Assembly: GCA_009103225.1 (NCBI GenBank)
Contig: RHPI01003156.1
Coordinates: forward strand, 864,159 to 928,158
DNA: 64,000 nt
Origin: Chlorokybus atmophyticus
Lineage: Eukaryota > Plantae > Mesostigma and Chlorokybus algae
Direction of reading: 5' to 3'
In this document: positions 10,468-33,661 of the stretch, one piece after another
How positions within the stretch are numbered: the stretch's first letter is position 1
Layout of the letters: each line of letters starts with the position of its first letter
Notes under the pieces: generated by a model
Told to the model about the DNA's origin: nothing
Database searches by the model: none
Seen by the model: the letters and a program-made list of their open reading frames with translations, nothing else
Program-made: the position numbers and the translations under genes

Positions 10468-12479
10468 GTGGCATGCAGCTAGTTATGTCTTATGTATCAG
10501 TAGTCCACATTCCTTTGTACATATTATTCACGAGTTGTCTCTCTCTCACTCTCTTTAGGTACATGCCGTGCTGCACTTGAATATAACGGTGTACTGCATA
10601 TGATTGCTCTGACTGTTTGTTGAGTTGGTTAGGGTGTCAGTTACTCAGTCTTGCCTACGACACGCTTGATTAAAAGGAACCTACCTCAGCCAACACCAGC
10701 TGGAGTTACTGCCTTTCTTGCATGCGCTTCTGTAGTCATCAGCGTTGGACTGCATATTGACTGACCATGGGTGAAGGCTGCCGCTGGCTCAGCAGATGTG
10801 AGGAGGCTATGGCCAAGCTTGTGTGGTAAACAGGTACTCGTGTGCTGCTGTTTGTGGGTATATACTTTGGTCTAGCTACAGGTAAACATAAAAGTATGCT
10901 ATCTGCATCGAGTGTGAGAAATTGTGTTGATTTATGTCTCACAACAAATCAAAGTAAGGCGCGAAATATAGTATAAACACCCCTTGGAATGCATTGTGAC
11001 AAACGGCCCGTTAACCTAGTGCATGGCACGGTTGATGGCACACAGAGTAATTGTGCGTAATATCAAGGTATTGTGCATATGGTATAGCAGTGCAAACGCA
11101 TTCATTGGCACATGCACAGTCAACTAAGCAAGCGCACACACAGCCAAGCCAACACAATACATGTCAGCAACCTATCAAACTAAGGGGGCTGGGCTATGTG
11201 CATAGTGCTGACGAAGGCATGACGGCTGCAGCGTTCAGCAGCGGTGGTGCAGGCGCAAGAGGAGGAGGAGGAGGAGAAGGAGGGAGAGAAAGAGGTATAG
11301 GTGAGACCACGAGGCAGGCATTACAAGGACGTCCATGACCGCGACTACGTGAATGCCCAGTCCCACGAATTGCCTTAGCCGCAAGTCGCTTATCTCCTGT
11401 TCACGCAACTCACAACAGCCAACGGCCGCCACCAAAAACGGCTGCAGGCAATATAGCGTCGCAATCATGTTATGCAGCAATAGCATGCTAAGAAAAGTCA
11501 CATAGCAAGTTACACATAGTCACATACAGAGCATCGTTGTCAAGTTCAAAGGACTGGCCTAAGCAACTCTCAGTTCCTTACTTATACGGTAAGGAAGAAG
11601 GACTAAGTGAGGTTTCCATAAAGTCATGGTGAGTGTAGCACCTTGGCATACGTGCTCATGAAATTAGTTCTTATGCATGTAGTGTATAAGGAGCTACACA
11701 AGGCACTGTCTACTAGTACAGGATCGGTTAGTGTCAATGCGCATTGTCGCACAGGCAGCAAGTACGCTGCCTATGTTGACGTGTCTGAGGGTGGACAAAG
11801 TTTGCATGTGCTGACAGGTCAGCGCACTGGTGGCGAGGGCTTGTTGGCTTTGGACATCATATGTGCCAGGCCGGATGTCACAGCCCACTCGACCACAAAA
11901 GACTTGGTGCTTTTATGGTCGATTTGTGGTAATTTAATGTACCTTCCCGTAACACCGGAGAGCAACAGGTAGTATAAAGGCGTGACTACCACCTTGTGGT
12001 GGCAATTAGTTGCTGGCCTTGCGGAGCTACTTGTGTGTGGGGTGCTTGGCTGAAGCTGTTGTAGGGTGCTCTTCTTATCTACTCCTTGTGGGGGTATTGC
12101 AAGGTATAGCAAGTTGAATTGCTTGCGGAAGTTTGCTACGCTCTCGGCAGGTAAGTTGAATGGTGGACGTGACATTGGCATTGGCGCGGTGTTCCAAGCC
12201 TTACATGCTTGTGCATCAGCTTGCACACATGTTGCTGGCATACGTGTTGCATTCTTTGCTTGCATATGCTTTGTAGCAGTGTTGCTGGCTAAGATTGCAT
12301 GCTAGTTGGCTATTCCAATTGCGTGCACACTTGCATATTCGGTGTGGGCTGTATTCCACGCTATCTCTGGCATCTGATTGTGTGCATCACTGTTGCATAC
12401 AAACGGAGCAGTGTTGAGAGGGTGTGATTATCGCATTCACACTCATTGCGTGCTGACATAGCAAAAAAGTTTCAGAATG

Positions 12480-13603
12480 GATTTGGCTGGTGCAAATGCT
12501 GCCCACCCGCTAGCAGCTCAGGTAACCAAGCTTCGGAACCAAATGCAACCCATGTTGGCTGTTAACACATCCATGAAGGAATAGCATGAGGAGCAGCTGG
12601 CTAAGTTGACAGCTGCAAACGCGCACAAAATGATGCCATGCCTTGAGTTCTTCTCAGGCGCTCATGAGGGGAAAGGCAAGGATCTTGGTGTTGCTATGCG
12701 TGCCTGGTAAGTCGGATGCAAGCGTGTGTTGAGTGCTGCTGAGGTTTCGCCTGGGCATGAGGCCAAGGCAATTGTACTGTTGGCACCCTACTTGCGGGGC
12801 AGTGCTGCACACATGTGGGAAGGGGCTTTTCCACGCCTAAAGGCCGCTGGCAAGGATGTCACGAGCCTGGGTGTGCTTAAGAGTACTATATTGCTTATGG
12901 GGGTGTGAACCCATCGCAGAAAGCACGTGACAAGCTAAGCTTGGGCGTTTGAAAGTCAAGCCTGGGCAATGAAGGACTTTACTGTCTTCTTCAGGTCAGT
13001 GTGTGCCGTGGTCGGCCCTGACATGTTGCTCTATGATGCGAAGAAGATGGATAAGTATTGAGTCGCTCTGCCAGAGGATACAAAGAAGCAGCTAACCTTA
13101 AAGAAGGCCTTGAATCCTTCCCGCATGCTGACTACGAATTAATGAAGCGCACGGCTGTCCAGCATGACAGCAGCCAGCGCATGATCAACCTGGCCAAGAA
13201 GCTTACTCTTGTAAACAGCTCCTGGCCCTCATCGTTTACCACCACAGTTGCTAGTGGCAATGGCAATGGTAGAGGCAACAACCGCAAGCGCGGACGCCCA
13301 GACAGCAAAGGCAAGCACCCCTTTAAGCCTGCCAATAAGAAGCGCACCAATAACCTTCCAGAGGTCAGCCAAGAGCTGAAGGGTGCTCGCTTTAAGGCCG
13401 GAGTATGCCTGAAGTGCCGGGAGAACGGCCATCCAGTGGTCACCTGCCTCAACCCCGCCAATAACAAGCCCGTTGCATCAGATAACGAGGTGGAGAGCTT
13501 CTTGTCAAGCAGGAAAGCCTTGCCAGCTACCGACATTGTGTTGTACTTTATTGGTAACGTACACCCATCTTTTCGCACATGTGATGTTAGTGTGGGACAA
13601 TAA
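12480..13603 (+). pseudogene. Degenerate retrotransposon gag with CCHC zinc knuckle
   Basis: ORF 13058-13603 contains CLKCRENGHPVVTC (C-X2-C-X4-H-X4-C) after a basic/Asn-rich stretch. Upstream fragments (LEFFSG, APYLRGSAAHMWE) are gag-like and broken by stops. Confidence 0.6.
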
Positions 13604-13931
13604 AATGGCTGTGCCTGTTGACTCCTCCAATGCATGACGGTGTGGGCAAGCATGTGCTGCTTAAAGCGACCTTTGACAAGTTGTCAACAGTGCTCAAGCA
13701 CTGTGTAAAGTGCAAGAGCAAGAGTTCGCATAACACAAGTGCATGTATCACTGTGCCGAAGTATAGAGGACCATGGTTGTCCTATAAAAAGGGTATGCAA
13801 GTGGTGCAGGAGATTGACAGGGCTTAGACTGGCTTGGGATGGGCGTATCATGTATAACCCGCCAATTCTCCTTCGGGGAAATCGCTTGAATTTGACATGG
13901 CTGTTTAAGGTGACAGGTGCACGTGTGCCAG

Positions 13932-15173: not shown

Positions 15174-17390
15174 TCAAGTGGCATCTGTGGATTTAAGCTC
15201 ATTCTTAAACTCCTCTAGCTTGGCAGCACAGTTTGCCAAGTTGGAAACAGGCTCCCAGGTGTTATGCTCTTCGCCATAACCAAGCCACTTCACCAAGCAT
15301 TGGGTTTGAAAGCTTTTTTGTACTTTCTGAACCGTTTGCCAACAATGGCCTCGACCTCATACTCAAGGTCGCCCTCCAACCCAACTGGAGGAGGAGGTTG
15401 CTGCACTAGACCGTCACTTTTGTATGATTACAGCAGTGCTACATGAAGCACATCATGTACACGCATGCTCTTTGGCAACTCTAGCCGAAAGGCACGCTCA
15501 CCTGCACTATCAGTGATGTGGAATGGACCCAACCATCTTGGTAGCAACTTGCGTACCCAGCTTGTTCTGAGTCGAATGTTCTTCGAACTCAACACTTGGT
15601 CTTCAACTTGGACATCATTTTCAGGCCTTTGTTTCATGTTGGCATACATCTTTTGCCTATCTTGTGCTGCTCTCAGGCAGTCTTTCGCATGTGCCAATGC
15701 GGCATGCATGCTTTCAGTGAAGTTTCTGGCCATAGGCACTTTTTTGAACGGCTCAACACTCAGAGACATAGGTGTCAACACATGGTGACCGTAGTTCAGA
15801 TCGAACGGAGTGCTACGTAGCGACTCACGCCGTGCATTGTTCACAACGAGCTCAGCTAACGGCAAGAACACATCCCACTCAATGACGTGTAGCGGCGCAG
15901 CACATCTTCAAGCACCTGGTTGACGCACTCCGTCTGTCCATCATTCTGTGGATGGTAAGTAGTGCTCAAGCTCTGCTTAATCCCCAAGTACCGGCACACA
16001 GCCTGCCAGAACTGGCTCACAAACTTGGGGTCACGGTCTGATACCAACTCTTTGGGTACACCGTGTGATCTGAACACCGAGTTCACAACGACAAACGGCA
16101 AACTCTTGCGCATCAGTGTCCATGCGACACGGCTCAAATTTGACCATCTTGGTCAAGCGATCAACAAAGACAATAACAGCACTGTGTCCTTTATTTGTCT
16201 CAGGTAGATTTGTGATTGGATCCATGCTCACATTTTCCCACTAATAGTTGGGAATAGCTAAGGGCTTCAGCAACCCTGCTGGCTTCCTGTGCGAGGCTTT
16301 GTCTCTTTTACATGTGTCACAACATGCGATATACTTGGATGCATCAGCACCCAAGCTTGGCCACCAGTACCATCTCTGCAGCTGCTTGATGGTCTTTGTC
16401 ATTCCCATGTGCCCACTGTACACGGAATTGTGTGCCTCAAACAGACACTCTTGCCTTAAGCCGAGTGCATCTGGCACTATCAACTTGCCCTCACGGTACC
16501 ATAGGCCCTTGTGACAAGCGATCGTGTCGTCTGCTTGCTTCAGCAACTTAAGAAACCATGTGTCAAGTGCATAAGCATCAGGCAAACGCTGTATGATATC
16601 TTTCACATCGACGGCCATTGGGTCCTCCTCACTTGGCTCGTGAACTGCCAACGGTGCTTCATAGTCTGCATTCTCAAGCTCAGTTGGCATCTCATTGGTC
16701 TCTGTTGCCACTGCTATCTCACTAGCAGCGAGCTCATGCTCAGGTGGCAACTCAGAAGTACTGGCACTGGCATTACTTGCTTGTGCCCATCCTTGGCTTC
16801 GTGCACGTGCACGTGTTGTCACTGCGAACAGCAGCGACGAACGGCTCAAAAAATCTGCCACATTTACTCTCCCTGGTCTATAAACCCAGGTGAGTTTGAA
16901 TCTCGACAAGTACTCAGCCCACCTTGCTTGTCTTCTTGACAAGGTTGGTTGGGTCGAAAAGAACACAAGGGGGTTGTGGTCCATGATTGCACTGAACCCG
17001 CCTTCCACCCCCTCAAGATAGCAACGCCACTCCTGTAGCGCATGGACTACCCCCAACAGCTCGTGCTCAGTTGTTGTATAGTTCCTCTCAGCTAGAGGAA
17101 ACTTCTTGCTAACATAAGCAAGGGGGTGCCCACTCTGGAGCAATACAGCATTAGTGCCCTCAACAGATGCATCATAGAACATCTTAACAGGCTTGGTAAA
17201 GTCCAGCAGCTGCAACAAAGGCGCTGTCACCAAAACCTCTTTGATGGACTCGACGGCTTTTTGCTGCCTCTGTAACCACCTCCACACCACTTTGTCACGC
17301 AACAGATTAGTGAAAGGGGCAACACGCAATGAATAACCCAAGATATACTTGCATAAGTAGTTGCTCAATGTTAAGAATGCGCGCAGCTCA
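15174..17390 (-). mobile_element. Chromovirus-type Ty3/Gypsy pol remnant (RT thumb, RNase H, integrase, chromodomain), 5'-truncated
   Basis: ELRAFLTLSNY; FYDASVEG; ERNYTTTEHELLGVVHAL; HNSVYSGHMG..CDTC; SMDPIT..VDRLTKM; VSDRDPKF; HPQNDGQTE. A frameshifted C-terminal chromodomain reads EYEVEAIVGKR..LVKWLGYGEEHNTWEPVSNL, with the stop at 15174. Confidence 0.9.
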
Positions 17391-19057
17391 TACAGCCCTC
17401 GAGGTGGCACACATGGAGGAGCAAGCAGCAGTGACAGTCGAAGACATTCCCGCGGTTGCCAATGCAACCTCATGGGATCATGCCATTGGCCCTCTTGCCA
17501 CAAAAAACACGTGAGAAAAGTTGGAGGCTCTCTTCAACAACTGGAGGAGCCAATTCAGCTTTAACGTAAAGGAGTTTGATGCATGCTCAGTATCAAATGG
17601 ATATCGAGCTAAATAAACTGACAGCTAGTGTTCCGACGGCAATACAGGCTCTCCAAGTTGGAAGAGGACCTGGTGGAGCAGAGATGCAAGGCTTTGCTGG
17701 ATGCTAGCCCTATTGAAGAGTCCACATCGGACTTTGCAGCGGCAACCGTCATGCCATCAAAGAGGATTTAGCAGGCAAATTGAACAGAACGGCGCATGTG
17801 CAGCGACTATCGCCCCCTCAACAACAAGACTAAGCAAGACAGGTACCCCATGCCTACCGCAGAGGGTACGCAGAGGGTACCTTTGATGATGTGAGAGACT
17901 ACACGGTCTTTAGCATCCTTGACATGCATCAAGGGTACAACAAAATCGCCATCAAGGATGAGGACAAGCACAAGACCTCCTTCTGGGGCAACTGACAGTT
18001 GCACCAATGGAAGGTGGTGCCGTTCGGGCTGAAAAATGCCCCCCCCAAGTTGTAATGCGTTATGGACAAAGCCTTGATGAGGTTGGACTTCGCGCGGTTC
18101 TACGACGACGACATCCTCATCTTCAGCCGCAGCAATGAGGCGCATCCAGCACATTGAAGCAGTGCAAGCAGTGGAACGGCTCAAGGGAGTGGGGATGACT
18201 GTACACCCTGACAAGTGTACTCTCTTCACCCACTTTTAATAGTTAGACATATGAGACACACTACAACACTACTTGAGTTTGGCTATCAACAACCATACCA
18301 TGGACATCATGATAGTGCACGCACAATAGAGGCTACACAAGCAGTACAGCATGTCAAGTGAACTACTACTCATGCTTACGCATGTCTGATATATTGTGGT
18401 ATTGCTATTTGCTATAGCCACGGCCTTTTGCATAATATCTAGAGCTACCACCACATTGTGCTGAGCATCTATTGGCTTCTGGTGTTGACATTCAGTTTAT
18501 TGACAGCATCCGGACCCTTCAGAGCCTTCAGAGCTTCCACTGATATTGCTATCAGAGACTCCAATTTTAACGATATCCGTCTTACAAACCCTCGACCTCT
18601 AATATCCGCAGTCAGACTCACAACTCGTTGATGTCTGCACCATTGACAGCCCCAACGGCTGTCCATACTACAAGTTAAGGACTTAGCCAAATCTAGCAGT
18701 TCTAGGCTGACTGTCTACATGAACAGCCGTGCAAGTGCCTATCACCAACACCCACAAGCTGCCATATTGTAATAATGATGTGTATGTGCAACATGCAAAA
18801 GTAGAGGCTCTGGCAGCTATCCCTACCCCAGCGGACCTCACACGCTTGCGCGCCTTCTTGGGTTTTGCCAACCATTATTGCTGGTTTGCAAAGGACTTCG
18901 CTACAGTTGCAAGGCCCTTCAACAAGATATTGAAGAAGAAAGTGGAGTTCGCGTGGAAGGAGCCACAACAGCAGGCCTTTGAAGAGCTGAAGAGCGGGCT
19001 CACCACAGCTCCCATTCTTCAACATCATGATTATGCCAAGCCTTTCATTCTTCGCAC
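17383..19057 (+). mobile_element. Degenerate sister copy of the PHD-Gypsy family, left part (RT to start of RNase H)
   Basis: Frameshifted homology to 22300-23460 of the main element (AAHTALE.AHMEEQAAVTVE, RLSKLEEDLVEQRC, LTRLRAFLGFAN, KPFILRT). Interrupted at 19057/19058. Confidence 0.88.
18234..18748. mobile_element. 515-bp insertion in the degenerate RT, flanked by CACCCAC direct repeats
   Basis: CACCCAC at 18227-18233 and 18749-18755. RT homology stops and resumes at these points. 18602-18638 resembles the terminal repeat sequence at 42032-42067. Confidence 0.5.
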
Positions 19058-19062
19058 CACAC

Positions 19063-19301
19063 TGTCGTGCCTGCCATGGTCGAGGGCAACCTTGTCTCGG
19101 ACAGGCTGCAGAGGAGTGCTAGTGCTGCACGCATGCTAGTGCCGTGCACTGCATTGGAGTCATGCAAGCAAAAGACAACCCCCCAATCGTGGGCATAGGC
19201 TTGAAGATGAGCCTACGCGGTGTTTAGTGCAGTGGACGAGCCGATGCCGCTCGCCACCTTTGTGTACAGACTGTGTCGTAGGGCACACAGTCAACAAGCC
19301 A
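19063..19301 (-). repeat. Repeat B2 (239 bp), 3' terminus of the element
   Basis: Direct repeat of 19954-20192 with about 5 mismatches by eye; ends CACGACA on the minus strand. Confidence 0.93.
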
Positions 19302-19951
19302 CTACGATAGGTAGTGCTGTGGACACAGTTCTTTGCATGAGTGGATAGAATGATACACTGTTAAGTGAGGTGAATGAGTGTGCAACACGTGGATACAACA
19401 CCCTGACTACTGAAACAACACACCACCGTCAAGCTCACAGCAATGGCAGGCACAGCGCACAAGAGCATGCACCGTGTCTCACGCAGTAAGGGAATTCTTG
19501 GCAACCGGGGCAGCGTGCTTCCAGTTCAAGTCGCTTCACAAGCTCTTTAGAAACAGAGTCTTTACTTCTTAGTACTCCTAGTACTCACAGTACTCACTTA
19601 CAGTGTCACCAGCCAGTCTGGTGACGTGACTTCCTACTTATACATGTCAAATCATGACTGTGCAGTGCCACGCGGGCACTAGGCCAACGGTCACATCGAG
19701 GCCTCATGCTATTTCGGAAATCTCCTAAGACTTGATATAGCACATGTGTTCTTAACAGACTTACAACTGATCAGCTACGCGCGGTCCCTACAGACAGGTC
19801 TATAAAGTAGCCCTAGCTACATGCTACATGAGTGGTACAGTAGCTAGCAGTAGGCTGGGGCTCGCGCGGTCTTCATGCTGGTAGCCCGGGCGTGGGGCTG
19901 GGTGTAGGCATGCTCGAGAAGGACTGGCATGCGAGGGTAGATGGCATGACA
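19289..19951 (-). repeat. Repeat A2 (663 bp including a 13-bp overlap with B2)
   Basis: Direct repeat of 28735-29397 with about 5 transition differences by eye. Confidence 0.93.
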
Positions 19952-19953
19952 GC

Positions 19954-20192
19954 TGTCGTGCCTGCCATGGTCGAGGGCAACCTTGTCTCGGACAGGCTGC
20001 GGAGGAGTGCTAGTGCTGCACGCATGCTAGTGCCGTGCATTGCATTGGAGTCATGCAAGCAAAAGACAACCCCCCAATCGTGGGCATAGGCTTGAAGATG
20101 AGCCTACGCGGTGTTTAGTGCAGTGGACGAGCCGATGTTGCTCGCCACCTTTGTGTACAGACTGTGTCGTAGTGCACACAGTCAACAAGCCA
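19954..20192 (-). repeat. Repeat B1 (239 bp), directly after the PPT
   Basis: Minus strand reads AGGGGGGG then TGGCTTGTTGACT...CACGACA, then GC, then A2. Confidence 0.93.
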
Positions 20193-20238
20193 CCCCCCCT
20201 GAGATTCTGGGGTAGCCCTCTGCTCCAGAACTCAGTTC

Positions 20239-23200
20239 CTACCGACTGTGTGGGGGACCGTTGATGCGGCAGTCATCGCACCAGTACTCCCACAAGGGTA
20301 CTGCGTCCAGTGGAGGGTCAAGGCAATAGCAGTGCATGCCTTGATTACAGCCGTCGCATAACATCATCAATGGGTCGTCGTCGGCGCTGCCACACTTCTC
20401 GCATCGGGTGCTGCGCAGCGGACGCGGGTGCTGGATCTTGGTGAAGCCAGCAATGTAGGGGAGATGACAGGGCGCACAGTTGACCATGTTGTCCTTCATG
20501 CGCTCGCCTCGTTGTCCCAACAGGTCCAGTACCCCTGTGGGGTGCACCTTCAATACCTTGTAGACAGCACGCCCGACGGAGGTATCGAGGGTGTCGCGTG
20601 TAGACGCCATACGGTAGACGAAGTCTCCTGACTCGAAGCGGCGCTCCCGCTCCTTGTAGAAACCACTGCGCACACGCTCGTAACGCAGCGTGTCGCGGTG
20701 CTGCGCGATGCGCAGGTTGTTGAAGGCCATGGGGACTGTGTGTTCGAACAGCGCACTGCGCACTGTCAGATCATACAACATCTCGTCGGGGTTGTCGAGA
20801 TTGTCCACCACTCTGTCGACCTCCTGCTGTGCGCGGAAAGGGAGCAATGGCTGCCTTCCGAACAGTAGATAGTATGGGCTGTACTCTCGCAGGGCTGCCT
20901 GCTTGGACAGCCGGTAGCCCATTGCTACCCATGGGAGGTGATCATCCCAGGTATTCTTCTCGTAGGCGAGGACGTACTTGCGCAGTGCCTTCTTGATGGT
21001 CTGCACGGTACGCTCGGCGAGGCCGTCGGCCTGCGGGTGGTCGCGTGAGGTGCGACGGTGGTCGATGAAGCATCTGTCGATAAGCTTGTCGAAGGCTCCT
21101 CTGAACTCCGTACCCTGGTCGGTGATGACTTCAGCGCAGCTGCCGAAACGTCCGAGTACATGGGAGAGGAAAGCCTGGGCTACTCCCTCACTGCTCTTGT
21201 CGGGCAGGGGCACCAGCTCCACCCACTTGGAGAAGTGCTCGATCATGACGAGGATGTAGCGGTTGCCTCGCGCTGAGGGCGCTAGGTCTCCGAGGATGTC
21301 CAGTCCCCAGCGGTAGAACAACCCGGAAATGGGAAGGGGATGCAAGGTGGCATTGCGCGTGTTGAGGCTGGCGCGAACCATGTCACACTGCTGACAGTTG
21401 CTGACGAACTCCCGCACCTGTCTGTGCACCCCATACCACCAATACTGGGTCCTGACCAGGCTGACCGTGCGCTTGACACCGAAGTGCACGAGCTCGGTGT
21501 GAAGGGAGGAGATGATGCCTTCACGTGCAGCTGGTGTGGGGACCTCCGGATCTGCATCTTGTATCCGTCGATACAGCCTGTCGTTGGCCCAGCGGTAACG
21601 CTGAGTGCGTTGTCGGACGCGGTCCTTCTCGCGTGCGCTCATGCCTACTGGAAGTTGTCCAGTCTGAAGCAGTGCGAGGGATGGCTCGTCCAGCCAGATG
21701 TCTTGTCGTGTGTCGGTGGGTGCCAGCTCCTCATCATCCACCTCAGGGTCGGCAGCGATTGCTTCTTCTGATAAAGGATCGGTGGTGATGGCGGGCTCGA
21801 GAGCGGGCATGTCCCCGTCTGCTGCTGCCTCTGTGGTCTGAGTCCTGCGTCCCGAACGTAGCGCAGCGACAGCGAACATGGTGGCCACACCTGAAGGTGC
21901 AGCTGTAGGACCCAACTCATGTCGGGCGCCCGTGGTGTCGTTGGTGCTGAGGTGGGGGTTACGGCTGATGCCATTCGCATCCTGGTTGGCAAGGCCTGCG
22001 CGGTGTTCCACCTCGAAGTCGTACTCTTGGAGCAGCAGCGCCCATCGTGCTAACTTTCCTGTCAAGTGCTGGTTGTTCATTAGCCACTTGAGGGGTTAAT
22101 GGTCAGTGACCAGTTGGAACTGCCGTCCAAACAGGAAGGGTCGGAAGAAGGAGATGGCCCACACTGCGGCGAGACACTCCCCTTTGTAGCTGCTGTAGTT
22201 GGCCTCAGCACTGTTGTTGCTGCGGCTGGCGTACGACACTACGCGCTCCTTCTTGTTGTTGTCATGCTGTACGAGCACGGCCTCCATGCCGAGCTTGCTC
22301 CAGTCTGTGTGCAAAATGAACGACCGGGTAGTCAGGGCGTTGCAGAATGGGAGCTGTGGTGAGGCGGAGCTTCAGTTCCTGAAAGGCCTCCTGTTGTGCC
22401 TCCTTCCACAAGAACTCGGTGTCCTTCTTCAGTAGTTCGTTGAGAGGCCTTGCGATCTTGGCAAAGTCTTGAACAAACCGTCGGTAATAGTTGGCAAGGC
22501 CGAGGAAGGCCCGCAGCCGCGTGAGGTTTGTGGGGGCAGGGATAGCCACCAGTGCCTTCACTTTGGCCTGCTGTACGTACACACCATGGGGCACAATCAT
22601 ATGTCCTAAGTAGTGTACCTTGTGGGTGAAGAAGGTGCACTTGTCAGGGTGCACCGTCATCCCGACTTCCTTCAGCCTCAGTAGCACCTCTTCGATGTGC
22701 TGGAGATGCTCCTCATTGCTGTGACTGAAGATGAGGATGTCGTCGATGTAGCAGCGCGCGAAGTCCAACCCCTTGAGGGCTTTGTCCATGACGCGCTGGA
22801 ACTTGGCCGGAGCGTTCTTCAGTCCGAAGGGCATGACCTTCCACTGGTACAGCTGCCGGTTTCCCCAGAAGGAAGTCTTGTGCTTGTCCTCCCTCCTTGA
22901 TGGCGATCTGGTTGTACCCTTGGCGCATATCCAGGATACAAAAGACCGTGCAGTCTCCTACATCGTCAAAGATGCCTTCTGCAGTAGGCATCGGATACCT
23001 GTCCTGCTTGGTCTTGTTGTTGAGGGGGCGATAGTCGCCACACATGCGCCGGTCTGTCCAGTTGCCTGCTGAATCTTTCTTCAGGGGCATGACGGTCGCG
23101 GCCGCAAAGTCCGATGTGGACTCCTCGATCAGGCCTGCATCTAGCAGCGCCTTGCACCTCTGTTCCACCAAGTCTTCTTCTAGCTTGGAGAGGCGGTACT

Positions 23201-26200
23201 GTCTTCTAAACACCGGTTCGGTGTCCATTAATTCAATGTCCATCTGGTATGCTGAGCAGATGCCCAGCTCCTTCACACTGAAGCTGAATTGGCTCCTCCA
23301 CTTGTTGAAGAGAGCCTCGAGTTGCTCTCGAGTCTGGCCTGTGGCTAGCGGTCCAATGGCGTGGGACCACGAGGTAGCGTTGGCCACCACTGGAATGTAT
23401 TCCACAGTGACTGCTGCCTGCTCCTCCATGTGGGCGGTCTCGAGGGCGGTATGTGCTGCTTTGGTCTCTGAAAAGCGAGCAATCCACCCCCCAGCCAGGT
23501 GTTCGAGCTCCTGGAAGGACACATGGCGGTCCTGGAGAGCAAAGCACATTTCCAAGTACCACACCATGCTGTTCTGATCCATGGCGCGCCCTAACAACTG
23601 ACATTGTTGACTGGTTGTCAGCGTGGAGCTTGTGATGCTGCCTGGAAAGAATCCCATAGCACGCTCGCGCTCGCGGGCATTGGGTTCTTTCAGCTGTCCA
23701 GTGTTGGAGTCCAACACCATGCCGTCGCCTGCATTGCGGAACGCGTAGGAGCCTGGATAGGATACAAGTGTGGGTAGCGCGCGGCGCGGCTGACCAGGCT
23801 GGTTGCACTGGTAGAAGTGGTGGTGGTCAAGGCGTGTGACTGGTTGCGCTGTGCATCCTGGGTCCAGGATGTCATCGACGACGAGATTTTGTGGCCGGGT
23901 TTGTGGCCGGAAGCATCCGCCTCACAGGACTGCATCATCCTCATCCCAATGTGGTCGAAACCATGCCTGCTCAGTCCAGCAGTCCAGCCCCATGCCGACA
24001 GGGAAGTTGCAGTCCTGTCCCAACAGTAGGTCAAAAGACCCGGCATCGGTGACCACACACCTTTGTACAATCTCGGTGCTGTGGGAAGGGTTTAGTCCTG
24101 TGAGGCGGATGCTCACAGCCTGCTTGGTAAGGCCGAGTACCTTGTCGCGGTTGCCGGTTGCGATGTCCAGCTGGTAGGGACAGGGAAGCAGCTCAGCGCT
24201 GGTGATGCCGAGATCTCGTGCGAGATAGCGCCCAATGATGACAGGCTGTGCTCCAGTGTCCAGCATCACGTGTTTGGGTGCCCGCCCATTGACGGTCACG
24301 TGCTTGCCTTGGTTGGCGATCATGGCTGCATTGGCGTTGATGCGCAGCCTCTTCAAGCGACGGAACCTCTTGCGTGGAGAGACTGTTGCTTTATTCTCAT
24401 CTGCGGGGCCTGACCGTAGGGCAGCCAGGGCTCCTCTGCCTGATGGATCTTGTGGGCCTCCTTGTCCTCGGCTTTGTCCAAACCGTCCTTGTCGCGGTTG
24501 CTGGTACACGCGTGGTGGCCTAGGCACTGGAGGTGCTGCTGCAACCTGTCCAAGTGGAGGTGCAGGAGGGTTGACCCTCTGTGCAGCTGTTGTCATGCCA
24601 GGAGGAGTGGCCAGTGGCTGTGGCGGGAACCCTGGAGGACCTGGTGTTTGCGGGACTGCCTCTCGTGCAGCCTGCTCCTCTGCATAGGTCCATCGCACAG
24701 CATGGGCTGCCTCTCTGACTAGTGTACCTTCCCATGTCGCCGTCGCATTATTTTCCGCATCTATATAGCGATGGTTCTGAGGCATGGGCTGCAGGTACAC
24801 TGCGCGTAGGAGCCGCGCTCTCATGTCGTGGGTGATGGTGGGCACCCTGAGGATCCCTGCCATGTAAGCATCCCATTTGCCGTTGACCACTCCCACTTCC
24901 AGCACTGTGATTGCTCGTGTGCGTACAGTGAGCCGGGTCTCTGGCTGTTGGACATGCTGCTCGTAAGCAGTGGCGATGCGCCTGCGCTGACGTCCTGCCT
25001 CCACTCCTGGCAAACTCAGTATCGCCTCCAAAGCTCCCTCCAGAGTGTCAGTGGCGGCGGAAGCCACTTCATTATAGGCTTGCCGTATGGAGCGAAGGAA
25101 TGCGTCCACCCACGCTATTCTGGCGTCGAAAGCGAACAACGGGACTGCAGGATGGTTGGTAACCAGCCACGTCACTAACCGTGCGCGTGCCGCGTTGCCA
25201 TTGTCTCGCATCCCAAGCATCTGCCGCAGTCCGATGCCTTCTTGCCGATGCAGCATGGTTGCTTGTCGCAACAGAGCAGTGCGTAGTTGTTGCTCTCCAA
25301 CCAGTCCTGCTCCATCTCTTTGTGTACACCCTTGTGGTGTAAGGTAGCCCCTCCCTGGCTCCCTTTGGTCCTTAGGTAGATCCTCCACCAGCGCAGGCAG
25401 CAACGGGGCGATCACCCCCCTGGTTTGTTGAGCCAACGCCCTCGCTTGGTCAGAGTTGGTCTCGACGAAGAGCGGAGTGGTGCTGGAGGATGGACCAGCA
25501 GTTGGTGACTGAGGTATTGGTGCACGTGTAGCTTCAAGAGCTTGTTCACGTGCAGCAATGGCGGCAGCTTGATCCTGTCGCCAATGATATGCTTGTTCCA
25601 GTGCGTGGTAGCGCTGATGAAGACGAGCGGTTGTAGGAGGTCCGAGTGCTTCATCAGTGCCCAAAGGCAGGTCGGCTGCGTCGGCGATTCGCTGCTGGAT
25701 GGCGTCTCGGCGGTCCCGATATGTGTCCAACGGGCTGGGTTCAACGGTGGTGGTTGGCATGCGTGCAGGCTGGCGCGGGGCGGTCTGCATGTTGTTGTGC
25801 AACGCCCCGAGCAGCTGCAGAGCCAACTCCAACACTACAGGTGGGCTGTAGCTGATCAAAAACACCCTGTCACGCATCGGCGGTGCAGTGCCAGCAAGGA
25901 TCTCATCTTCTAACTGGTGTTGAGTGAGTGCTGGAAGGGTGTGAACCTCTGGTAGCGGGAAGACGCGATCATCGCGAGCGACACGCGTGGTGCGCTCCCC
26001 CCCCCGACCGAAGGCGATGGTAGTGGGGTCTGCTCCGCGCAGGATGGTCTCTCATGCTCGCTCAGCTTGCTGACCAGTTGGGACAGCCTGCGTGACGTCG
26101 AGAGCGGGCAGAGTGGCTGCGCGCGTCGCTGCAGAGACAGCGGGCTCGACGATGGCCATTGTGGCAGTTGCGACTGTATCGGTCGGTGGTGCGAGAGTTG

Positions 26201-28533
26201 TCTCAACGCCTACGGACAGAGGCACTGCTGCAGTGGGAAGTGCACCGCCCACTGGTGCAGATTCGGTAGAGATGGCGGCTGCTGCCAGTGTGCTCACCAG
26301 CGTCGGCGTCACGGTGCCCACCGGTGTACCAGGTTGTGGTGCAACTGGAGTGGGTACCGCTGACGTTGGTGGAGCCGACGTTGTAGCCGGTGTGGCTGTT
26401 GCTACGGAGGCAGCACCACTGGTGGCTTCGGAGGAGGTGCCTGCTGATGTTGTTGCAGCTTCCCCTCGTGCTCGTCGTGATGGTTGAACGCGGGACGGAG
26501 TGTTCCTGTCTCTCTCGCGTTTTGCAGCCATCAGCGCCCATCGGGCAGCGTAGCAGGCGCGGTAGTCCTGCTCCTTGTCTTCCTCCAAGCGCGCCATACG
26601 CGCCATGAGGGCTGCCATATGGTCATCAGCTGGTGGGTTGGCTGAAGCCTTGGCGGCAACAGCAGCAGCGCGCGGACGTGTCTCTGGTCCCTTACGCTGA
26701 GGAGGTCTGTTCTTCCCCCTGTAGCCTTGCTCTTCCTTGCGAACACTGGCGTTGTTGTTGTTGTTACTGCCACCAGCGTTGTTGCTGTTGTGGGCTCCAG
26801 TGTTGTTGCTATTGTAGCCACTGAAGTGGTTGCCAGTGTGGCCCCCAGTGTTGTTGCTGTTGTAGCCACTGAAGTTGTTGCCAGTGTGGCCTCCAGTGTT
26901 GTTGCTGTTGTAGCCACCGAAGTAGTTGTGGTTGTAGCTGTTGGCGGGCCTCAACTCTGGGAACTTGAGCCAGCAGACTGACTCCAAATGACCAGTCTTG
27001 TGACAGTGGTCGCAAACCAAAGTTGAGTATTCTTCGGTGCACTCCTTTTGGTAGTGCCCATGCCGTCCAAAGCGATGACACAGCACAGGGGCAGCAAGTG
27101 CAGCATGAGCTGACCGTTTCCCTTTGTCGCGTGCTGGTGGAGCGTCCCGGCCACGGTCGCGGCGAGGAGGCTCAGTTGTCGTGCTGACTACAGGCCGTAC
27201 GGCGCTGCGGTTGGTGTCCAGCACTGCCTTCTCATACACCAAGCGCTTGTGGATGGCTTGTGCAGTCTCGAAGGCTTCTTTGAGGGTGTAGCCAAGGGGC
27301 CTGCTGTAGTTCAGAGTCAGGCGTGTCGACTCGCTCAGAGCAGCATCCAACTCATTGACGTATATTACTGCAGCAGCCTCCTCACTGACAATCTTGTAAT
27401 CAGTGTCCTTCAGCAGACCTTCCAGTCTGGAGTACAAGCGGAGGGGATCCTCATTGGGCTTGCGTCGGAAGCGTCTCAGCTCCTCAACCTTGCTGGTGGT
27501 CTGAGGAGGGAAGGTACGGCGCAGGGCAGCGTACAGGTCCTTGAGTGGAGAATCAGAGATGGCAGCACCTACGGTGATGGCTGGTGCGCGCAGTGNAGCT
27601 GGTGCGCGTAGTGCTACTGACCCGAGGGTGAAAGCGCTGCCTCCTGCACGAGAGCCAGGTGTTGCTGGAGGTAGAGGAGTACCCCACTCTGCGGCTGCCG
27701 CTTGCTGTACAGCTCTTTGTTCCTCAATGATGATGGCAGAACGGTCAAGGATGCGGACTCGACGTGTGGCCTCCTTGGACTCAACTTCTGCAGGGGTCAA
27801 GTTGACAAGTACCAACTCTGGTTCCTCCTCCTCTGCCTGCTTGAGAGCTGCAGCTATGGTCAAGCCTGTTACTGCAACTGAAGTGGCAGGTGGAACGACA
27901 CCTGCTGGACGGTGCAGGGATGNTTTTGGACTCAACTTCTGCAGGGGTCAAGTTGACAAGTACCAACTCTGGTTCCTCCTCCTCTGCCTGCTTGAGAGCT
28001 GCAGCTATGGTCAAGCCTGTTACTGCAACTGAAGTGGCAGGTGGAACGACACCTGCTGGACGATGTAGGGATGCAGACGCTATGGTGCTGGCAAGCTCGC
28101 CATAGCCGTCTACTCGATGCAGTTCAGCAACGGACTTCCAGACATCGTGTGCTTCATAATCAAGATACTGAGCAGCAATGTGGAAAGAGATCTCATCTGA
28201 CCAGTCTTTGTTCTTCAGTGCTTGCTGCCGCATCTTTGAGTGGAACTTGATGATGAACTCATCCAGCGAGGTGGTGCCGGCACGTCCGGAGAAGCGCAGG
28301 GATGTGGTTGAACTGGAAGATTCCATCTCGTTGTCGTCGCTGTCCGATGATAGTGGAGAAGCTGGATGACGAGGAGTAGAGTGGAGCGGGGTGAAGCTGG
28401 AGATGGAGCGCGAGCCTCTGCTGCTGCGGTCGATGCTTCCGTCACTGGTCCGCTCGTAGGTGAGGTTGGTGGTTGGGCTCCAACTGCTGAGGTCACCCTC
28501 GTCTATTGGGGAGAACGGGGTGGGCCTGCTCAT
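20239..28533 (-). pseudogene. Disabled polyprotein: Gag (2 zinc knuckles) - unassigned domain - protease - Dnmt3-like remnant - RT - RNase H - integrase - PHD finger
   Basis: Zinc knuckle CDHCHKTGHLESVC; protease VMLDTGA..DLLLG; RT RMCGDYRPLN, LDMRQGYNQ, MPFGLKNAP, YIDDIL; RNase H HTDWSK..YKGECLAAVW; integrase H..FG..CQQC, WGLDILG, ITDQGTEF, QADGLAER; PHD at the C-terminus. In-frame TGA stops at 26052 and 23922, TAA at 22096, frameshifts near 22890 and 22320. Confidence 0.9.
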
Positions 28534-28734
28534 ACAGCTGGTCCAGAGGTGAAAGGGTAGAGTGCTTGTGCTCTACCGTCTATCCTGATGCTGTTACCAC
28601 CCAACACACTAGTGCTTGTGCGCACTATGTGATGACAATGATAACGAATGCCCAGCGATGTATCCCTGGGTGCAGACTGCACTATCTGATGCAGATTGCA
28701 ACACACTCACTTGTGCAAAGAGGGTGACACTGTA

Positions 28735-29397
28735 AGTCAACAAGCCACTACGATAGGTAGTGCTGTGGACACAGTTCTTTGCATGAGTGGATAGAATGAT
28801 ACACTGTTAAGTGAGGTGAATGAGTGTGCAACACGTGGATACAACACCCTGACTACTAAAACAACACACCACCGTCAAGCTCACAGCAATGGCAGGCACA
28901 GCGCACAAGAGCATGCACCGTGTCTCACGCAGTAAGGGAATTCTTGGCAACCGGGGCAGCGTGCTTCCAGTTCAAGTCGCTTCACAAGCTCTTTAGAAAC
29001 AGAGTCTTTACTTCTTAGTACTCCTAGTACTCACAGTACTCACTTACAGTGTCACCAGCCAGTCTGGTGACGTGACTTCCTACTTATACATGTCAAATCA
29101 TGACTGTGCAGTGCCACGCGGGCACTAGGCCAACGGTCACATCGAGGCCTCATGCTATTTCGGAAATCTCCTAAGACTTGATATAGCACATGTGTTCTTA
29201 ACAGACTTGCAACTGATCAGCTACGCGCGGTCCCTACAGACAGGTCTATAAAGTAGCCCTAGCTACATGCTACATGAGTGATACAGTAGCTAGCAGTAGG
29301 CTGGGGCTCGCGCGGTCTTCATGCTGGTAGCCCGGGCGTGGGGCTGGGTGTAGGCATGCTTGAGAAGAACTGGCATGCGAGGGTAGATGGCATGACA
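28735..29397 (-). repeat. Repeat A1 (663 bp), 5' terminus of the element
   Basis: Starts TGTCATGCC on the minus strand and ends ...TCGTAGTGGCTTGTTGACT; not followed by the rest of B. Confidence 0.93.
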
Positions 29398-31337
29398 ACA
29401 CCAATTGGCGTCAAACGACCAAGAATGGTCCGTACCCTCAGACCGGCGTTTTCCCCTGCCAATTAAATTCTGTAAACCATTTAAGGTTCGACTGTCATTG
29501 ACAATCGGACCATGCATAATCCAAACTCCTCATGAATGGTACCAAGATTTTCATGGGTCGCACTATGTATGACCCGGCGTTTTTTGCTCGCGTCAGGACC
29601 AGCTAGCGTTCGGGCAGCGGACCAGGGACCAGATTATAAACTTTTTACATGTAATCATCACTGGTCCGGACAGAGTATCTTGACCGAAACATCAAAGTAT
29701 AACAATCAAATTTGAGGCTAAAATCCTTGAAAGTGGCTTGATCTTATGCTGACGGCACTGATCACGCTGCGCGACTCACGCACCTACGTCGCACAAGGCT
29801 GCAGCATTTTAGAGATGATTTTGCAAGAACACAAGCACGCACAAGGATTTGACCCTACAACCTCTAACATTGAAACGACGCCCTAACTACAAAGCCACAA
29901 GTGCACGTACCGGTAGAATTGGCAACATGCCGACGGCCACTTGGCGACTGTCGATTGATATGCCCATATTATGCATGGGCTAAGCTAAAAGTTGAGCCCA
30001 TGCAGTGCATGCTATAAACATGCAAAGGCTGTGCAAGTATCACCTTATGAAAATTCGAAATGGATGGACATCCGCAACTCCGCGGCTGCTAGAATAATTA
30101 AATACACCATTTAGTTGGGGGGCTATCTAAATGTGCCGGGAATCGTGTTACGGGCTGTCAATGACAGCCCGTTTCTAAGATGAATAGAAACATACATATA
30201 CACATGTACACACATGCATATGTATATATGTGTGTGTATATATACACATGTGTGCGTACGATGTCATGTAACATGCACAGTACATATATACCTTGAATAT
30301 AAGTATATATGTATGTATCACGTTGGCATCGCAGCGCCGGCCCTTTAACGGCTAGTAAAAAGGCAACTGCATGGTTGGGGTCTGTTAATAAGTTTGTTGT
30401 GCCACAAAGGGCTATCATTAAAATGCTACTTGTGTCATGACTACATTTCATATATTATATAACACATACAATGTTAAGCGCATGTGAAGATGCAACACTT
30501 GCGTAAAATATCAACATATTAACAATCCAATTTTTAAAAATTTATAACCGCCTTATACACAGCAATCCACCCGATGATGCGCGAATCGAAAGTTATATAT
30601 ATCGATCACATGACGTTTTTGTAATAATGTTCATTTATGTATGACGTACATATATATCAATGCATGTCACGAGAACATTCCTATGTATATAATATATACT
30701 CGCAACTTCGTGCACATGCAATTATTATGGTTATAATAGTTGCAAAGATAGCCCCTTAAAGCTCATTAATTGATAACTGACAGCCCGGCTGTCAATTGGC
30801 CGCCGACCATTTGCGACTGTCCACCTGTCGGTGAGCACTTTTCGACAGTCTGAGCGGCCTGTTAAGAAGTTCATACGGACCAGCAAAGTTACTGGTCCAT
30901 GCCGCACCTTATATGGTACAGTCTAACCTCGATAAGTGCATACCATTGGGAACACCTCTTTCTATGCACTTGTTGCGGATATGCACTTACGCTGCCTTAT
31001 ACCATCAGTAAAGTGCATTGGTGTCGGGCAAAACCATGCACTTGTTGCGGATATGCACTTATCGAATATGCACTTATCGAGGTTAGACTGTAGCAAACGG
31101 ATTGGGTACGGTGCACGACAGCAGGGACCGCACGGCCGCGGAACCGTACCTGATGCAATTCATAAACCAGCGTGGCTAACCAGTCCATGCCGCACCATAA
31201 TTGGTGTGGCTTAGATTATGTTTGGTACGCGCCAGCACACCAAGCATTGGGGTCCTGAACGGACCAGGAACGGTCCGTCCCCCGCGGACCAGGCGGTCCT
31301 AGCCCGCGTATCTGGTCCTCGAATGTCAAGCCGTGTG

Positions 31338-33661
31338 CACCAACTATAGCAAGCTCGGGATGGGAGCCGTGCCGGTATAGCACGATGAGAACAAAAAGGA
31401 GCGGGTAGTGTCATACGCAGCGGAAGCAACAACAGCAGCTACGAGGGAGAGTGCCTCGCTGCAGTTTGGGCAATCTCCTTCTTCCGGCCATTCCATCTCG
31501 GCCGCCAGTTTCACTTGATCACCGACCATCAGCCACTCAAGTGGTTGATGACCAACCCACACATGACATGCAAACTTGCCCGTAAGGCCTTGCCCGTTGG
31601 GCCTTGCTGCAGGAGTATAACTTTGAGATCGACCACAACGCTGGCCTTACCATTAAAGACGCCGATGGACTCAATCGTAACCATCACCTCAGCACCAATA
31701 ATGCAATCGGAGCTTGGCATGAGCTCCTACAGTGGCTCCCCATATTTGCTGCCGCCGCGGTACGCTCAGGGCGCAAGACCGACACTACTGCCACAGCAAC
31801 AGCTTAGGAGATACTTGAGCCAATCGGTCCCCGCAATGAACACACCCGGAGGAGACACTCGCGTTGTCGAAATCGAGGTTAATGACATAGAGATGGCACC
31901 CACCGACACCAGGCATGACATATGGCTGGACAAGCCATCCCTCTCTCCTTTAAATTGGCCAGCTTCCCGCCGGCATGAGTGCGCGTGAGAAGGACCGCAT
32001 CAACCAGCGCACTCAGCACTATCGCTGGGCAAATGACAAGCTGTATCGCCGTCTCCATGGTGAAGATAAGGAGGCCGACACCAGCCACATGCGAGGGCAT
32101 CGGCACTGCCCTTCACACGGAGCTTGGACACTTTGGTGTTAAGTAAACGGTCAGCCTTGTAAGGGCACAATATTGGTGGCATGGTTGTACAAGCAGGTGC
32201 AAGAGTTTGTAAGTTGCTGCCATTAGTGTGACATGGTGCACGCCAGCCTTAACACGTGCAGCGCCACATGGCACCCTTTCCCCATCTCCGATCTCTTCAA
32301 TCGATGAGGGCTCAACATCTTGGGAGACTTGTCACCCTCAGCATGCGGCAACCGCTACATCCTTGTGATGAGCGAGCACTTCCCAAGTGGGTGGAGCTGG
32401 TGCCACTGCCCAACAAGAGCAGCAGGGGTGTCTCATGTCCTCAGCCAATTCGGCAGCTGCGCTGAGGTCATCACCGATCAAGGCACTGAGTTCAGAGGAA
32501 AGTTTGACACCCTTTTGGACAGGTGCTACATTGATCATCGCAGTACCTCACGTGACCACTCTCAAGCCGCTGGTCTTGCCGAGCGCACGGTGCATACCAT
32601 CAAAAGAGCATTGCGCAAGTACATGCTGGAGTATGCTGGAGTATGAGAAGAACACCTGGGATGACCACCTCCCATGAATGGCCCTCAGTTAACCAGCTGT
32701 CAAAGCAAGCAGCTCTGCGCGAGCACAGCCCGTATTACTTGCTGTTCGGGCGACCGTCGTTGCTTCCCTTTCGTGCACAGCAGGAGGTGGATCGTGTGGT
32801 GAACACACCTCAACGACCCCGACTGGATGCACCACGACATTACCACGCCCGCATCACTGTTTAAGCTCACCGTCCCAATGGCCTTTAACAACTTGCGCAT
32901 TGCGCAGCACCGCGTCACACTGCGCTACGAGCGCGTGCTTGGTGGCTTCTACAAGAAGCGTCAATGTCGGTTTCAAGCAGGGGACTTTGCCTACCGCATG
33001 AAGGCCACCAAAAACACGCTCGACACTTTCATTAGCCGCACTATCTACACGGTACTCAAGGTGTACCCCACAGAGGTGCTGGACCTCCTCGGCCAGAACG
33101 GCGAGAGGTTGAACTTTAACCGACGCCAATGGCAACATGAATTGCGCGCCATGTCACCTCTGTTATGTGGATGGCTTCGGGCGCATTAAGCACCCCCGCC
33201 CGGCCCGCAGCACACGTTGTGAGCGCTGTGGTAATGCCGACGACGACCTGCTTATGATGCTGTACAATAGCTGTAATAAAGGGCTGTATCGCTCCTGCTT
33301 GGAGCCCCCCTTGGGTAAGGTACCGGTGGAGGAGTATTGGTGCGATTACTGCCGCACCAACAGACCTCCACACTTGCGCTAGAAGCTAAGCTCTGGTGCT
33401 GGAAGCTTCTCAGAAGCTCAGGGGGGTGGCTTGTTGATTGTGTGCCCTACAGCACAGCATGTGCACTATAGTGGAGCACAACTCCCCAAGTCCGTATTAC
33501 TCAGCAGTGGACAAGCTCCACCAAGCATTTATCCCATGAGAGCTGATTTACCTTTGCTGTTGTCGACATGCTATTGTATGCTGCAGTAGCATATTTAGCG
33601 AGCGTGTCTTCTTTTACAGCTATCTGAGACAGCGTGACCCTCGACTCTCCCCGGCCCGACA
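31338..33661 (+). mobile_element. Degenerate sister copy of the PHD-Gypsy family, right part (RNase H, integrase, PHD, PPT, B-like terminus)
   Basis: SKLGMGAV..KKERVVSY; VITDQGTEFRG; QAAGLAER; decayed PHD CERCGNADDDLLMML..YWCDYC; G-run PPT ending at 33426, then TGGCTTGTTGA (33427), ending GGCCCGACA at 33661. Confidence 0.88.

Follow-up and report, generated by a model that had tools for sequence, protein, structure and literature searches.

Split direct repeats around a conserved internal palindrome in a Ty3/Gypsy-type retroelement family of the green lineage

Split direct repeats of the order A1-coding-B1-A2-B2, with element ends that match the internal B/A junction, are known from the PAT/Toc/kangaroo, Ngaro and VIPER retroelements (PMC4157794, PMC6681497). 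Canonical Ty3/Gypsy elements, Tf1/sushi and Tcn1 included, encode protease, reverse transcriptase (RT), RNase H and an integrase with H2C2 and rve domains, and have TG..CA termini, a 4-bp target-site duplication (TSD) and a polypurine tract (PPT); reverse transcription is reported to be self-primed in Tf1/sushi, and the same is predicted of Tcn1 elements in plants (PMC6317226, PMC11042837). The two architectures meet in KnitGypsy-Dnmt3 of Klebsormidium nitens, to which the legend of Figure 4c in de Mendoza et al. (2018) assigns DIRS-type repeats together with Gypsy domains (PMC5890265). Here we describe a related element in 64,000 nucleotides of Chlorokybus atmophyticus DNA (assembly GCA_009103225.1, contig RHPI01003156.1, positions 864,159 to 928,158, forward strand), the whole of which we call the window. 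The window element, recent but no longer intact, belongs to a Ty3/Gypsy-type family that is widespread in the green lineage; the layout is real, family-wide and mechanistically odd. Each end of an insertion of this family is one half of a conserved internal palindrome, and we propose, with a probability of roughly 60%, that a self-primed reverse transcript has its ends joined and is then cut by the integrase at the palindrome of the left repeat.

The features of the window element are collected in Table 1. Its order of repeats, its TG..CA termini and its perfect ACAC TSD had been read correctly in a first-pass annotation, as judged from a self-comparison and from the excision context. The two copies of A (663 nt each) differ at five positions, as do the two copies of B (240 nt each), and the divergence of A does not differ from that of B (Fisher p 0.14). 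B had been recognised as a repeat but given as 239 nt; it measures 240 nt because A and B overlap by a 14-nt word, which ends A, starts B and is also present at the PPT/B1 and A1/internal junctions. The outer termini, TGTCATGCC and GGCACGACA, match each other in inverted orientation at 8 of 9 positions. Excising the element together with one ACAC restores the intact end of a ~1.95-kb insert, which in turn interrupts an older relative within its RNase H region; since insert and older relative are both left consistent, the TSD is real. Stops and frameshifts break the copy, which also has two single Ns and, in gag, a duplication of 151 bp. Contigs of two runs, X1 and X2, skip this duplication and differ at both frameshifts, so local assembly errors are possible. 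Four of the seven runs listed contain the stretch, with no RNA run among them, and no single piece among the contigs of the four runs compared spans the whole element. The summed depth of the X1 and X2 contigs is ~40-340 over the element and 0-10 over the flanks; it is not a copy number, but the contrast is in keeping with a repeat.

Table 1. Features of the window element (positions in the window; aa, amino acids)
Feature	Position	Strand	Remarks
Element	29397-19063	minus	Split-repeat order A1-coding-PPT-B1-GC-A2-B2
4-bp TSD, 5' side of element	29398..29401	none	ACAC on the plus strand
A1	28735..29397	minus	663 nt; begins TGTCATGCC; putative left attachment half-site
TATA-like box	29083..29088	minus	A position 310; spacing to self-primer match as in six relatives
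Predicted transcript 5' end and self-primer	29042..29056	minus	15 nt, fully complementary to A1/internal junction
Predicted primer-binding site, end of A1	28723..28737	minus	No TGG start of the tRNA type
gag-like frames, in pieces	26052..28572	minus	Cys/His knuckle-like motifs by eye; no Pfam match
151-bp duplication with N in gag	27775-28073	minus	
709-aa frame	23922..26051	minus	Aspartic protease at aa 585-680
C5 cytosine methyltransferase, C-terminal remnant	23565..23897	minus	Between protease and RT
RT and RNase H	22098..23300	minus	Frameshifts near 22891 and 22327; stop near 22097
Integrase	20239..22095	minus	H2C2 zinc finger; rve core D..D-x34-E; C-terminal PHD finger 20403-20269
Purine run, PPT candidate	20194..20200	minus	7 nt, short; adjoins B1
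B1	19954..20193	minus	240 nt; terminates in GGCACGACA
GC spacer	19953-19952	minus	Between B1 and A2
Palindrome GACA-GC-TGTC	19948..19957	none	B1/A2 junction; putative intact internal attachment site
A2	19289..19951	minus	663 nt
A2/B2 joint, 14-nt overlap	19289..19302	minus	Predicted meeting point of the two cDNA ends
B2	19063..19302	minus	240 nt; terminates in GGCACGACA; putative right attachment half-site
4-bp TSD, 3' side of element	19059..19062	none	ACAC

The coding region is of the Gypsy type. Its open reading frames (ORFs) contain Pfam domains in the order protease, RT, RNase H, H2C2, rve and PHD, and protease, RT, RNase H and integrase follow one another in the intact relatives L026 and L050 as well. 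The best 2 of 14 matches of the RT in the PDB are Ty3 RT entries (E 1e-37), in a comparison confined to solved structures. The integrase matches PF17921 (E 1.7e-14) and PF00665 (34.3 bits, cutoff 32.6). The textbook spacing between the second and third residues of the catalytic triad is 35 residues. The first-pass annotation had named a plain D,D35E integrase; the rve triad stands (D141, D201 and E236 of a 493-aa query), and the spacing is one residue shorter, 34 residues, ungapped in an alignment of 31 rows. As it had also reported, there is no sign of a recombinase: none of 31 ORFs or ORF pieces of the element has a Pfam match to a tyrosine recombinase. Nor is a recombinase among the listed domains of 120 related polyproteins; a stretch of 580 aa N-terminal of the protease (24300-26051, minus) has no assignment in Pfam or the Atlas. 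Thus the window family shares its repeat order with PAT/Toc/kangaroo, Ngaro and VIPER, but differs from them in having a DDE integrase, an aspartic protease, an apparently Ty3-type RT and RNase H, a PPT and a 4-bp TSD, and no recombinase match. It has a TSD within the 4-6 bp of Ty3/Gypsy elements, but not two complete long terminal repeats (LTRs) with TG..CA ends bounded by primer-binding site and PPT. Lacking both these LTRs and a tyrosine recombinase, it is strictly a member of neither class.

The nearest described element is KnitGypsy-Dnmt3, which shares with the window element the Gypsy domain set, the A-coding-B-A-B repeats and a C5 methyltransferase in Pol (PMC5890265). Between the window integrase and three K. 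nitens proteins the identity is 45-52%, and all fall on one starred branch (97) of a quick unrooted tree. Most likely the window element belongs to a wider KnitGypsy-Dnmt3 group, a comparison made through these K. nitens proteins. The two differ in that the window copy has no intact Dnmt3-like methyltransferase, retaining a C-terminal remnant of ~110 aa; the domains of L026 and L050 are longer. The remnant is 37% identical to the L026 polyprotein over 120 aa (E 1e-14), which itself has a weak PF00145 match, and 50% identical to P0225 and P0230, where the order is protease, methyltransferase, RT, integrase.

Relatives are numerous. At least 307 integrase relatives were found, the named ones being from Klebsormidium nitens, Calypogeia fissa and Haematococcus lacustris, and a polyprotein search added Monoraphidium, Chromochloris (label Chrzof), Pleodorina, Volvox and Pseudoscourfieldia. 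DNA of relatives was sought in a metagenome scan that covered 38 of 64 parts, and the best 80 of 219 relatives were kept. Five independent insertions in an AT-rich host (L017, L019, L027, L032, L054) have the order A1-internal-PPT-B1-NN-A2-B2. This host is probably a bryophyte, because its integrases are sister to Calypogeia proteins (quick unrooted tree, no outgroup). Three insertions (L028, L036, L063) have a shorter A-internal-B form with TSDs, and a partial copy on a contig of 65% GC (L049) has a free A1 start, with B-GC-A downstream of the integrase. When loci with the same flank are merged, 12 insertions of the AT-rich host continue from the internal region through B-NN-A and 13 run from B straight into the flank. 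All nine elements with both ends, the window element included, have a 4-bp TSD (five perfect, four with one mismatch), and all nine are different. A candidate A1 at position 1603 of L002 was not confirmed, and the viral collection gave one weak locus among 43 stretches, which was dropped.

The first-pass annotation had proposed to look for such independent copies with distinct 4-bp TSDs, and had named ordinary LTR pairs in family members as the observation that would speak against it; among 51 loci of at least 5 kb we found none. These data also bear on the idea that the layout is an assembly artefact or a one-off rearrangement of an ordinary LTR element. The Ns, the gag duplication that is missing from the contigs of two runs, and the fact that no long read crosses the window copy would be in its favour. 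Against it stand the independent insertions in a distant host, which have the identical layout and palindrome but each a different TSD, the lack of ordinary LTR pairs, and the geometry reported independently for K. nitens (PMC5890265). We regard this explanation as barely credible: the split-repeat layout is a family trait, neither a misassembly nor a one-off.

The B/A junction, CA-GC-TG, is a deeply conserved palindrome. Of the 52 loci with enough sequence, 16 have the exact sequence GACAGCTGTC no more than 5 kb downstream of the integrase, where 0.15 would be expected, and it does not occur in 320 kb of control sequence comprising the integrase and its upstream region. It is present in 14 of 21 integrase clusters (65% identity); the seven negative clusters have 217-1736 nt downstream each. 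Palindrome-positive loci are spread over the whole integrase tree (quick and unrooted, without outgroup), and GACA-GC-TGTC is retained from 35% to 66% GC, the adjoining bases diverging. The spacer between B1 and A2 is 2 nt in every copy printed. The element termini are the two palindrome halves, with the central GC lost, and a staggered cut after each CA would yield exactly the ends expected of a DDE integrase. Conservation of this depth agrees with the earlier proposal that the junction is the attachment site. IS3/IS30-type insertion sequences offer a parallel, as their DDE enzymes act on abutted inverted ends with a 2-3-bp spacer in a circular intermediate; they differ in that there is no reverse transcription and that the transposase creates the junction, which is not part of a repeat. 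Foamy-virus integrase cuts the palindromic LTR-LTR junction of the two-LTR circle in vitro, on both strands of the duplex after CA, leaving 2-nt 5' overhangs; there, however, the palindrome consists of ligated normal ends and cutting restores a normal provirus (PMC1180852), whereas in the window family the palindrome is templated, lies internally and is apparently the sole attachment site.

The signals for reverse transcription lie elsewhere. The PPT candidate adjoins B; the same PPT/B-start motif occurs in the older relative in the window, at 33420, and a G-run immediately precedes B in the window element and in both AT-rich subfamilies. At the other side, A positions 342-356, 32 nt past a TATA-like box, are perfectly complementary to 15 nt across the A1/internal junction; the longest match of this kind in 2000 shuffles is 10 nt. 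A complement to the primer site 29-33 nt after a TATA box is found in seven of nine elements from three families (the window element and six of eight relatives); in L054 the match is present and the TATA box decayed. In six of the seven relatives folded, the predicted 5' end pairs with the primer site with a probability of 0.47-0.98. No family has TGG right after A1, a check made for TGG and not against a tRNA library, and tRNA priming was rejected. The pattern suggests Tf1-like self-priming from the RNA 5' end. The R region is predicted to lie within A, in line with the first-pass annotation. TGTAA, the poly(A) signal of chlorophytes, occurs at 29044-29048 (minus), A position 350, just past the predicted start site; if it were used in A2, R would be very short.

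The PPT adjoins B and the candidate primer site adjoins the end of A, which makes B-GC-A the best reading of the replication LTR and supports the earlier assignment. The cDNA defined by these signals would be (B-GC-A)-internal-(B-GC-A), with ends that lack CA and TG. Here the window family departs from canonical Ty3/Gypsy elements: its PPT and primer site stand away from the TG..CA termini, and these termini lie inside the replicated repeat, for which reason the provirus is a permutation of the cDNA. Two ordinary arrangements were considered and rejected, an A+B LTR with a displaced B (the PPT adjoins B, the primer match adjoins A, and the layout is common to the relatives) and a B+A LTR pair, for which an upstream palindrome would be needed. 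None of the 80 loci, among them 14 whose upstream sequence measures 7.5 kb or more, has a palindrome upstream of the integrase.

The same signals bear on a route like that of DIRS and PAT, in which the RNA would run from A1 to B2, B1-GC-A2 would splint a B2-GC-A1 circle junction, and a DDE integrase would then cut. It would account for the single permutation of the full element, and the repeat geometry is identical to that of PAT, Ngaro and VIPER (PMC4157794, PMC6681497). But TATA box and self-primer match sit in the middle of A (310-356 of 663 nt; 133-203 of ~300 nt in relatives), which makes transcription of the first half of A1 unlikely; the PPT stands before B1; and the A2/B2 joint, which this route would copy from RNA, is nevertheless variable. 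We therefore consider this route improbable.

The joints and the variation between copies carry further information. In nine copies of one subfamily the A2/B2 joint has a 2-nt overlap in five, is blunt in two and deleted in two. A joint that varies next to a B1/A2 spacer that is constant fits an A2/B2 joint that is remade in each cycle. A and B are each homogenised within copies: the distance between B1 and B2 is 0.072 within a copy and 0.115 between copies, with private variants common to B1 and B2, and the corresponding values for A are 0.112 and 0.152. Shared private variants and the variable joint both fit a B2 that derives from B at the left end of the cDNA, joined to A at its right end. 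The copy tree is poorly resolved (2 of 15 branches starred), with the two blunt copies on opposite sides of one starred branch. By branch length A-internal-B copies are not older than full copies, a slight argument for an origin at integration and against later recombination between B copies.

The layout, TSDs, conserved palindrome, PPT at B, primer complementarity, variable joint and homogenisation form the observed base of the mechanism that we propose. Transcription would begin in A1, ~32 nt downstream of its TATA box, and stop in A2. The RNA 5' end would prime minus-strand synthesis in the manner of Tf1, giving (B-GC-A)-internal-(B-GC-A) cDNA, whose ends, the start of B and the end of A, would go unused by the integrase. 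Tf1 cDNA ends often retain primer-binding-site and PPT single strands and untemplated bases (PMC11042837); ragged ends of this kind would be linked head to tail, most probably by closure into a circle. The DDE integrase would then make a staggered cut, GACA^GC-TGTC, in the left repeat, producing CA-3' ends with 2-nt 5' overhangs, and insertion with a 4-bp stagger would give A-internal-B-GC-A-B. If the cDNA were not joined, use of the left TG half and the right CA half would give dead-end A-internal-B copies. The first-pass annotation had proposed a permuted provirus from a circle with two sites: layout and TSDs agree, but A-B-GC-A-internal-B copies, which such a circle predicts in equal number, are missing (none, against six full A-internal-B-A-B copies). 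A preference for the left site must therefore be assumed, perhaps since that site would be completed first in standard reverse transcription.

Several observations weigh against this mechanism, the missing permutation among them. In the whole-leader minimum-energy fold of the window element the 5' end is not paired to the primer site (-120.1 kcal/mol free, -114.3 kcal/mol constrained, the alternative fold being better by 5.8), and L028 has no convincing primer-site match at the expected position. The overlap between the end of A and the start of B is not conserved (14, 2 and 0-1 nt), and junction variants could be inherited by subfamilies. No A1 was seen in six of the 14 loci that have 7.5 kb or more of upstream sequence, and one locus is a collapsed circle. 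A-internal-B copies can also arise by recombination between B1 and B2 or by assembly collapse. All eight complete relatives come from one AT-rich type of host, in two subfamilies, and cDNA, circle, transcript ends and integrase activity are predicted from sequence.

The same internal attachment site could also be used without a closed circle. In one version, a single additional end-to-end template jump of the RT would give a linear B-A-internal-B-A-B-(A) cDNA, of which the integrase would use the first and third palindromes; this predicts A-internal-B and A-internal-B-A-B but no A-B-A-internal-B, as observed. In another, the integrase would cut the left palindrome of a linear cDNA and insert both halves, and host repair would then join A2 to B2; the preference for the left site is still required here. 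The 2-nt overlap at five of nine joints and the deletions at two fit joining guided by microhomology, and RT has clamp activity on 2-nt overlaps. The two blunt joints, and the 0-1-nt overlap of the second subfamily, require no pairing. On balance, we think it unlikely, though worth keeping in view, that the ends are brought together in either of these ways.

How much of this is new? The first-pass annotation knew of no description of the layout; one is in print, in the KnitGypsy-Dnmt3 figure legend. The main text of that paper makes no mention of target site, circular, priming, PBS or PHD, and in the parts consulted it gives no attachment palindrome, TSD, priming mode or mechanism, nor do its three supplementary text files add a mechanism there (PMC5890265). 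A preprint (10.64898/2026.05.21.726589) mentions streptophyte Gypsy-DNMT3 elements, with no repeat structure in the part consulted. Gypsy-7a_cRei of Chlamydomonas reinhardtii, an active algal Gypsy element, resembles the window element by description in its polyprotein PHD finger and in LTRs drawn with 'subparts'; it differs in having left and right LTRs, the left without its last 8 bp (PMC9940879). In the literature within view, which did not include subscription papers, theses, Repbase, figures and bioRxiv supplements, we found neither the palindrome nor the TSDs, the self-primer or the breadth of the clade described. The layout has thus been noted once before; new, it appears, are the attachment palindrome, the mode of priming and the model of permuted integration.

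Other features of the coding region may be recorded here. A 27-nt inverted repeat (23905-23931 and 24094-24120) straddles the join between protease and methyltransferase remnant, and may mark the deletion that took most of the methyltransferase. In 96 of 120 polyproteins (P0121-P0240) the methyltransferase follows the RT, before the integrase; it precedes the RT in four and in the window element. Several of these polyproteins end, by eye, in a second methyltransferase-like tail past the PHD finger. The methyltransferase-bearing clade reaches chlorophytes, beyond the published Klebsormidium case (L026:4860-11408, L050:4281-10601). L026 has an additional 794-aa frame (11450-13834) between pol and palindrome, without a Pfam match. 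In gag, a 24-nt tandem repeat at 26753-26952 codes for an Asn/Gly-rich stretch. An Atlas look-up of a 237-aa unassigned stretch gave nothing usable.

The window element sits in the first bases of the ~1.95-kb insert (19058-19062 and 29398-31337), which is AT-richer, has imperfect inverted ends CACAC..GTGTG, a 3-bp (or 5-bp) duplication and no long ORF, and looks like a non-autonomous DNA transposon, possibly CACTA-like. The older, degenerate relative of the same clade (17383-19058 and 31348-33661, plus strand) is 70-78% identical; its 236-nt B ends in GACA and is followed directly by the flank. Pieces of other, distant Gypsy elements lie at 15889-17533 and 38160-39927 (both minus), with RNase H and H2C2 matches at 16244-17533. 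Inverted-orientation repeats outside the element are found at 37887-38159/41882-42145 (91%) and 11876-11954/39060-39140 (84%). Host exons are represented by an intron-containing Cse1/exportin-2 match at 3372-4004 (minus) and by a proline-rich frame with a weak DUF1349 match at 59056-60417 (minus).

Whether circular cDNA with joined ends can be the normal substrate of a retroviral-type integrase is an old question, and the retroviral evidence has pointed to a side route. We lean, by a little more than an even chance, towards the view that, in an old clade spanning chlorophytes and streptophytes, integration no longer depends on the ends that reverse transcription produces: the retroviral-type integrase would act as a site-specific double-strand cutter of an internal 10-bp palindrome in joined (circular) cDNA, and this would be the usual route and the sole productive one. 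This would be a third way between LTR/integrase and DIRS/recombinase elements, with the split-repeat geometry reached by convergence. LTR finders look for an LTR pair with TG..CA and a TSD (PMC6317226); finders that demand such a pair cannot detect these elements, and the annotation of a large green-lineage clade that carries PHD fingers and methyltransferases is probably incomplete as a result. If the proposal is true, integration at an internal site is obligatory in this clade, and the palindrome offers a defined 10-bp substrate for direct biochemistry. Split direct repeats would then follow from the position of the attachment site and not from a recombinase, which would provide a testable model for the replication of PAT and Ngaro elements.

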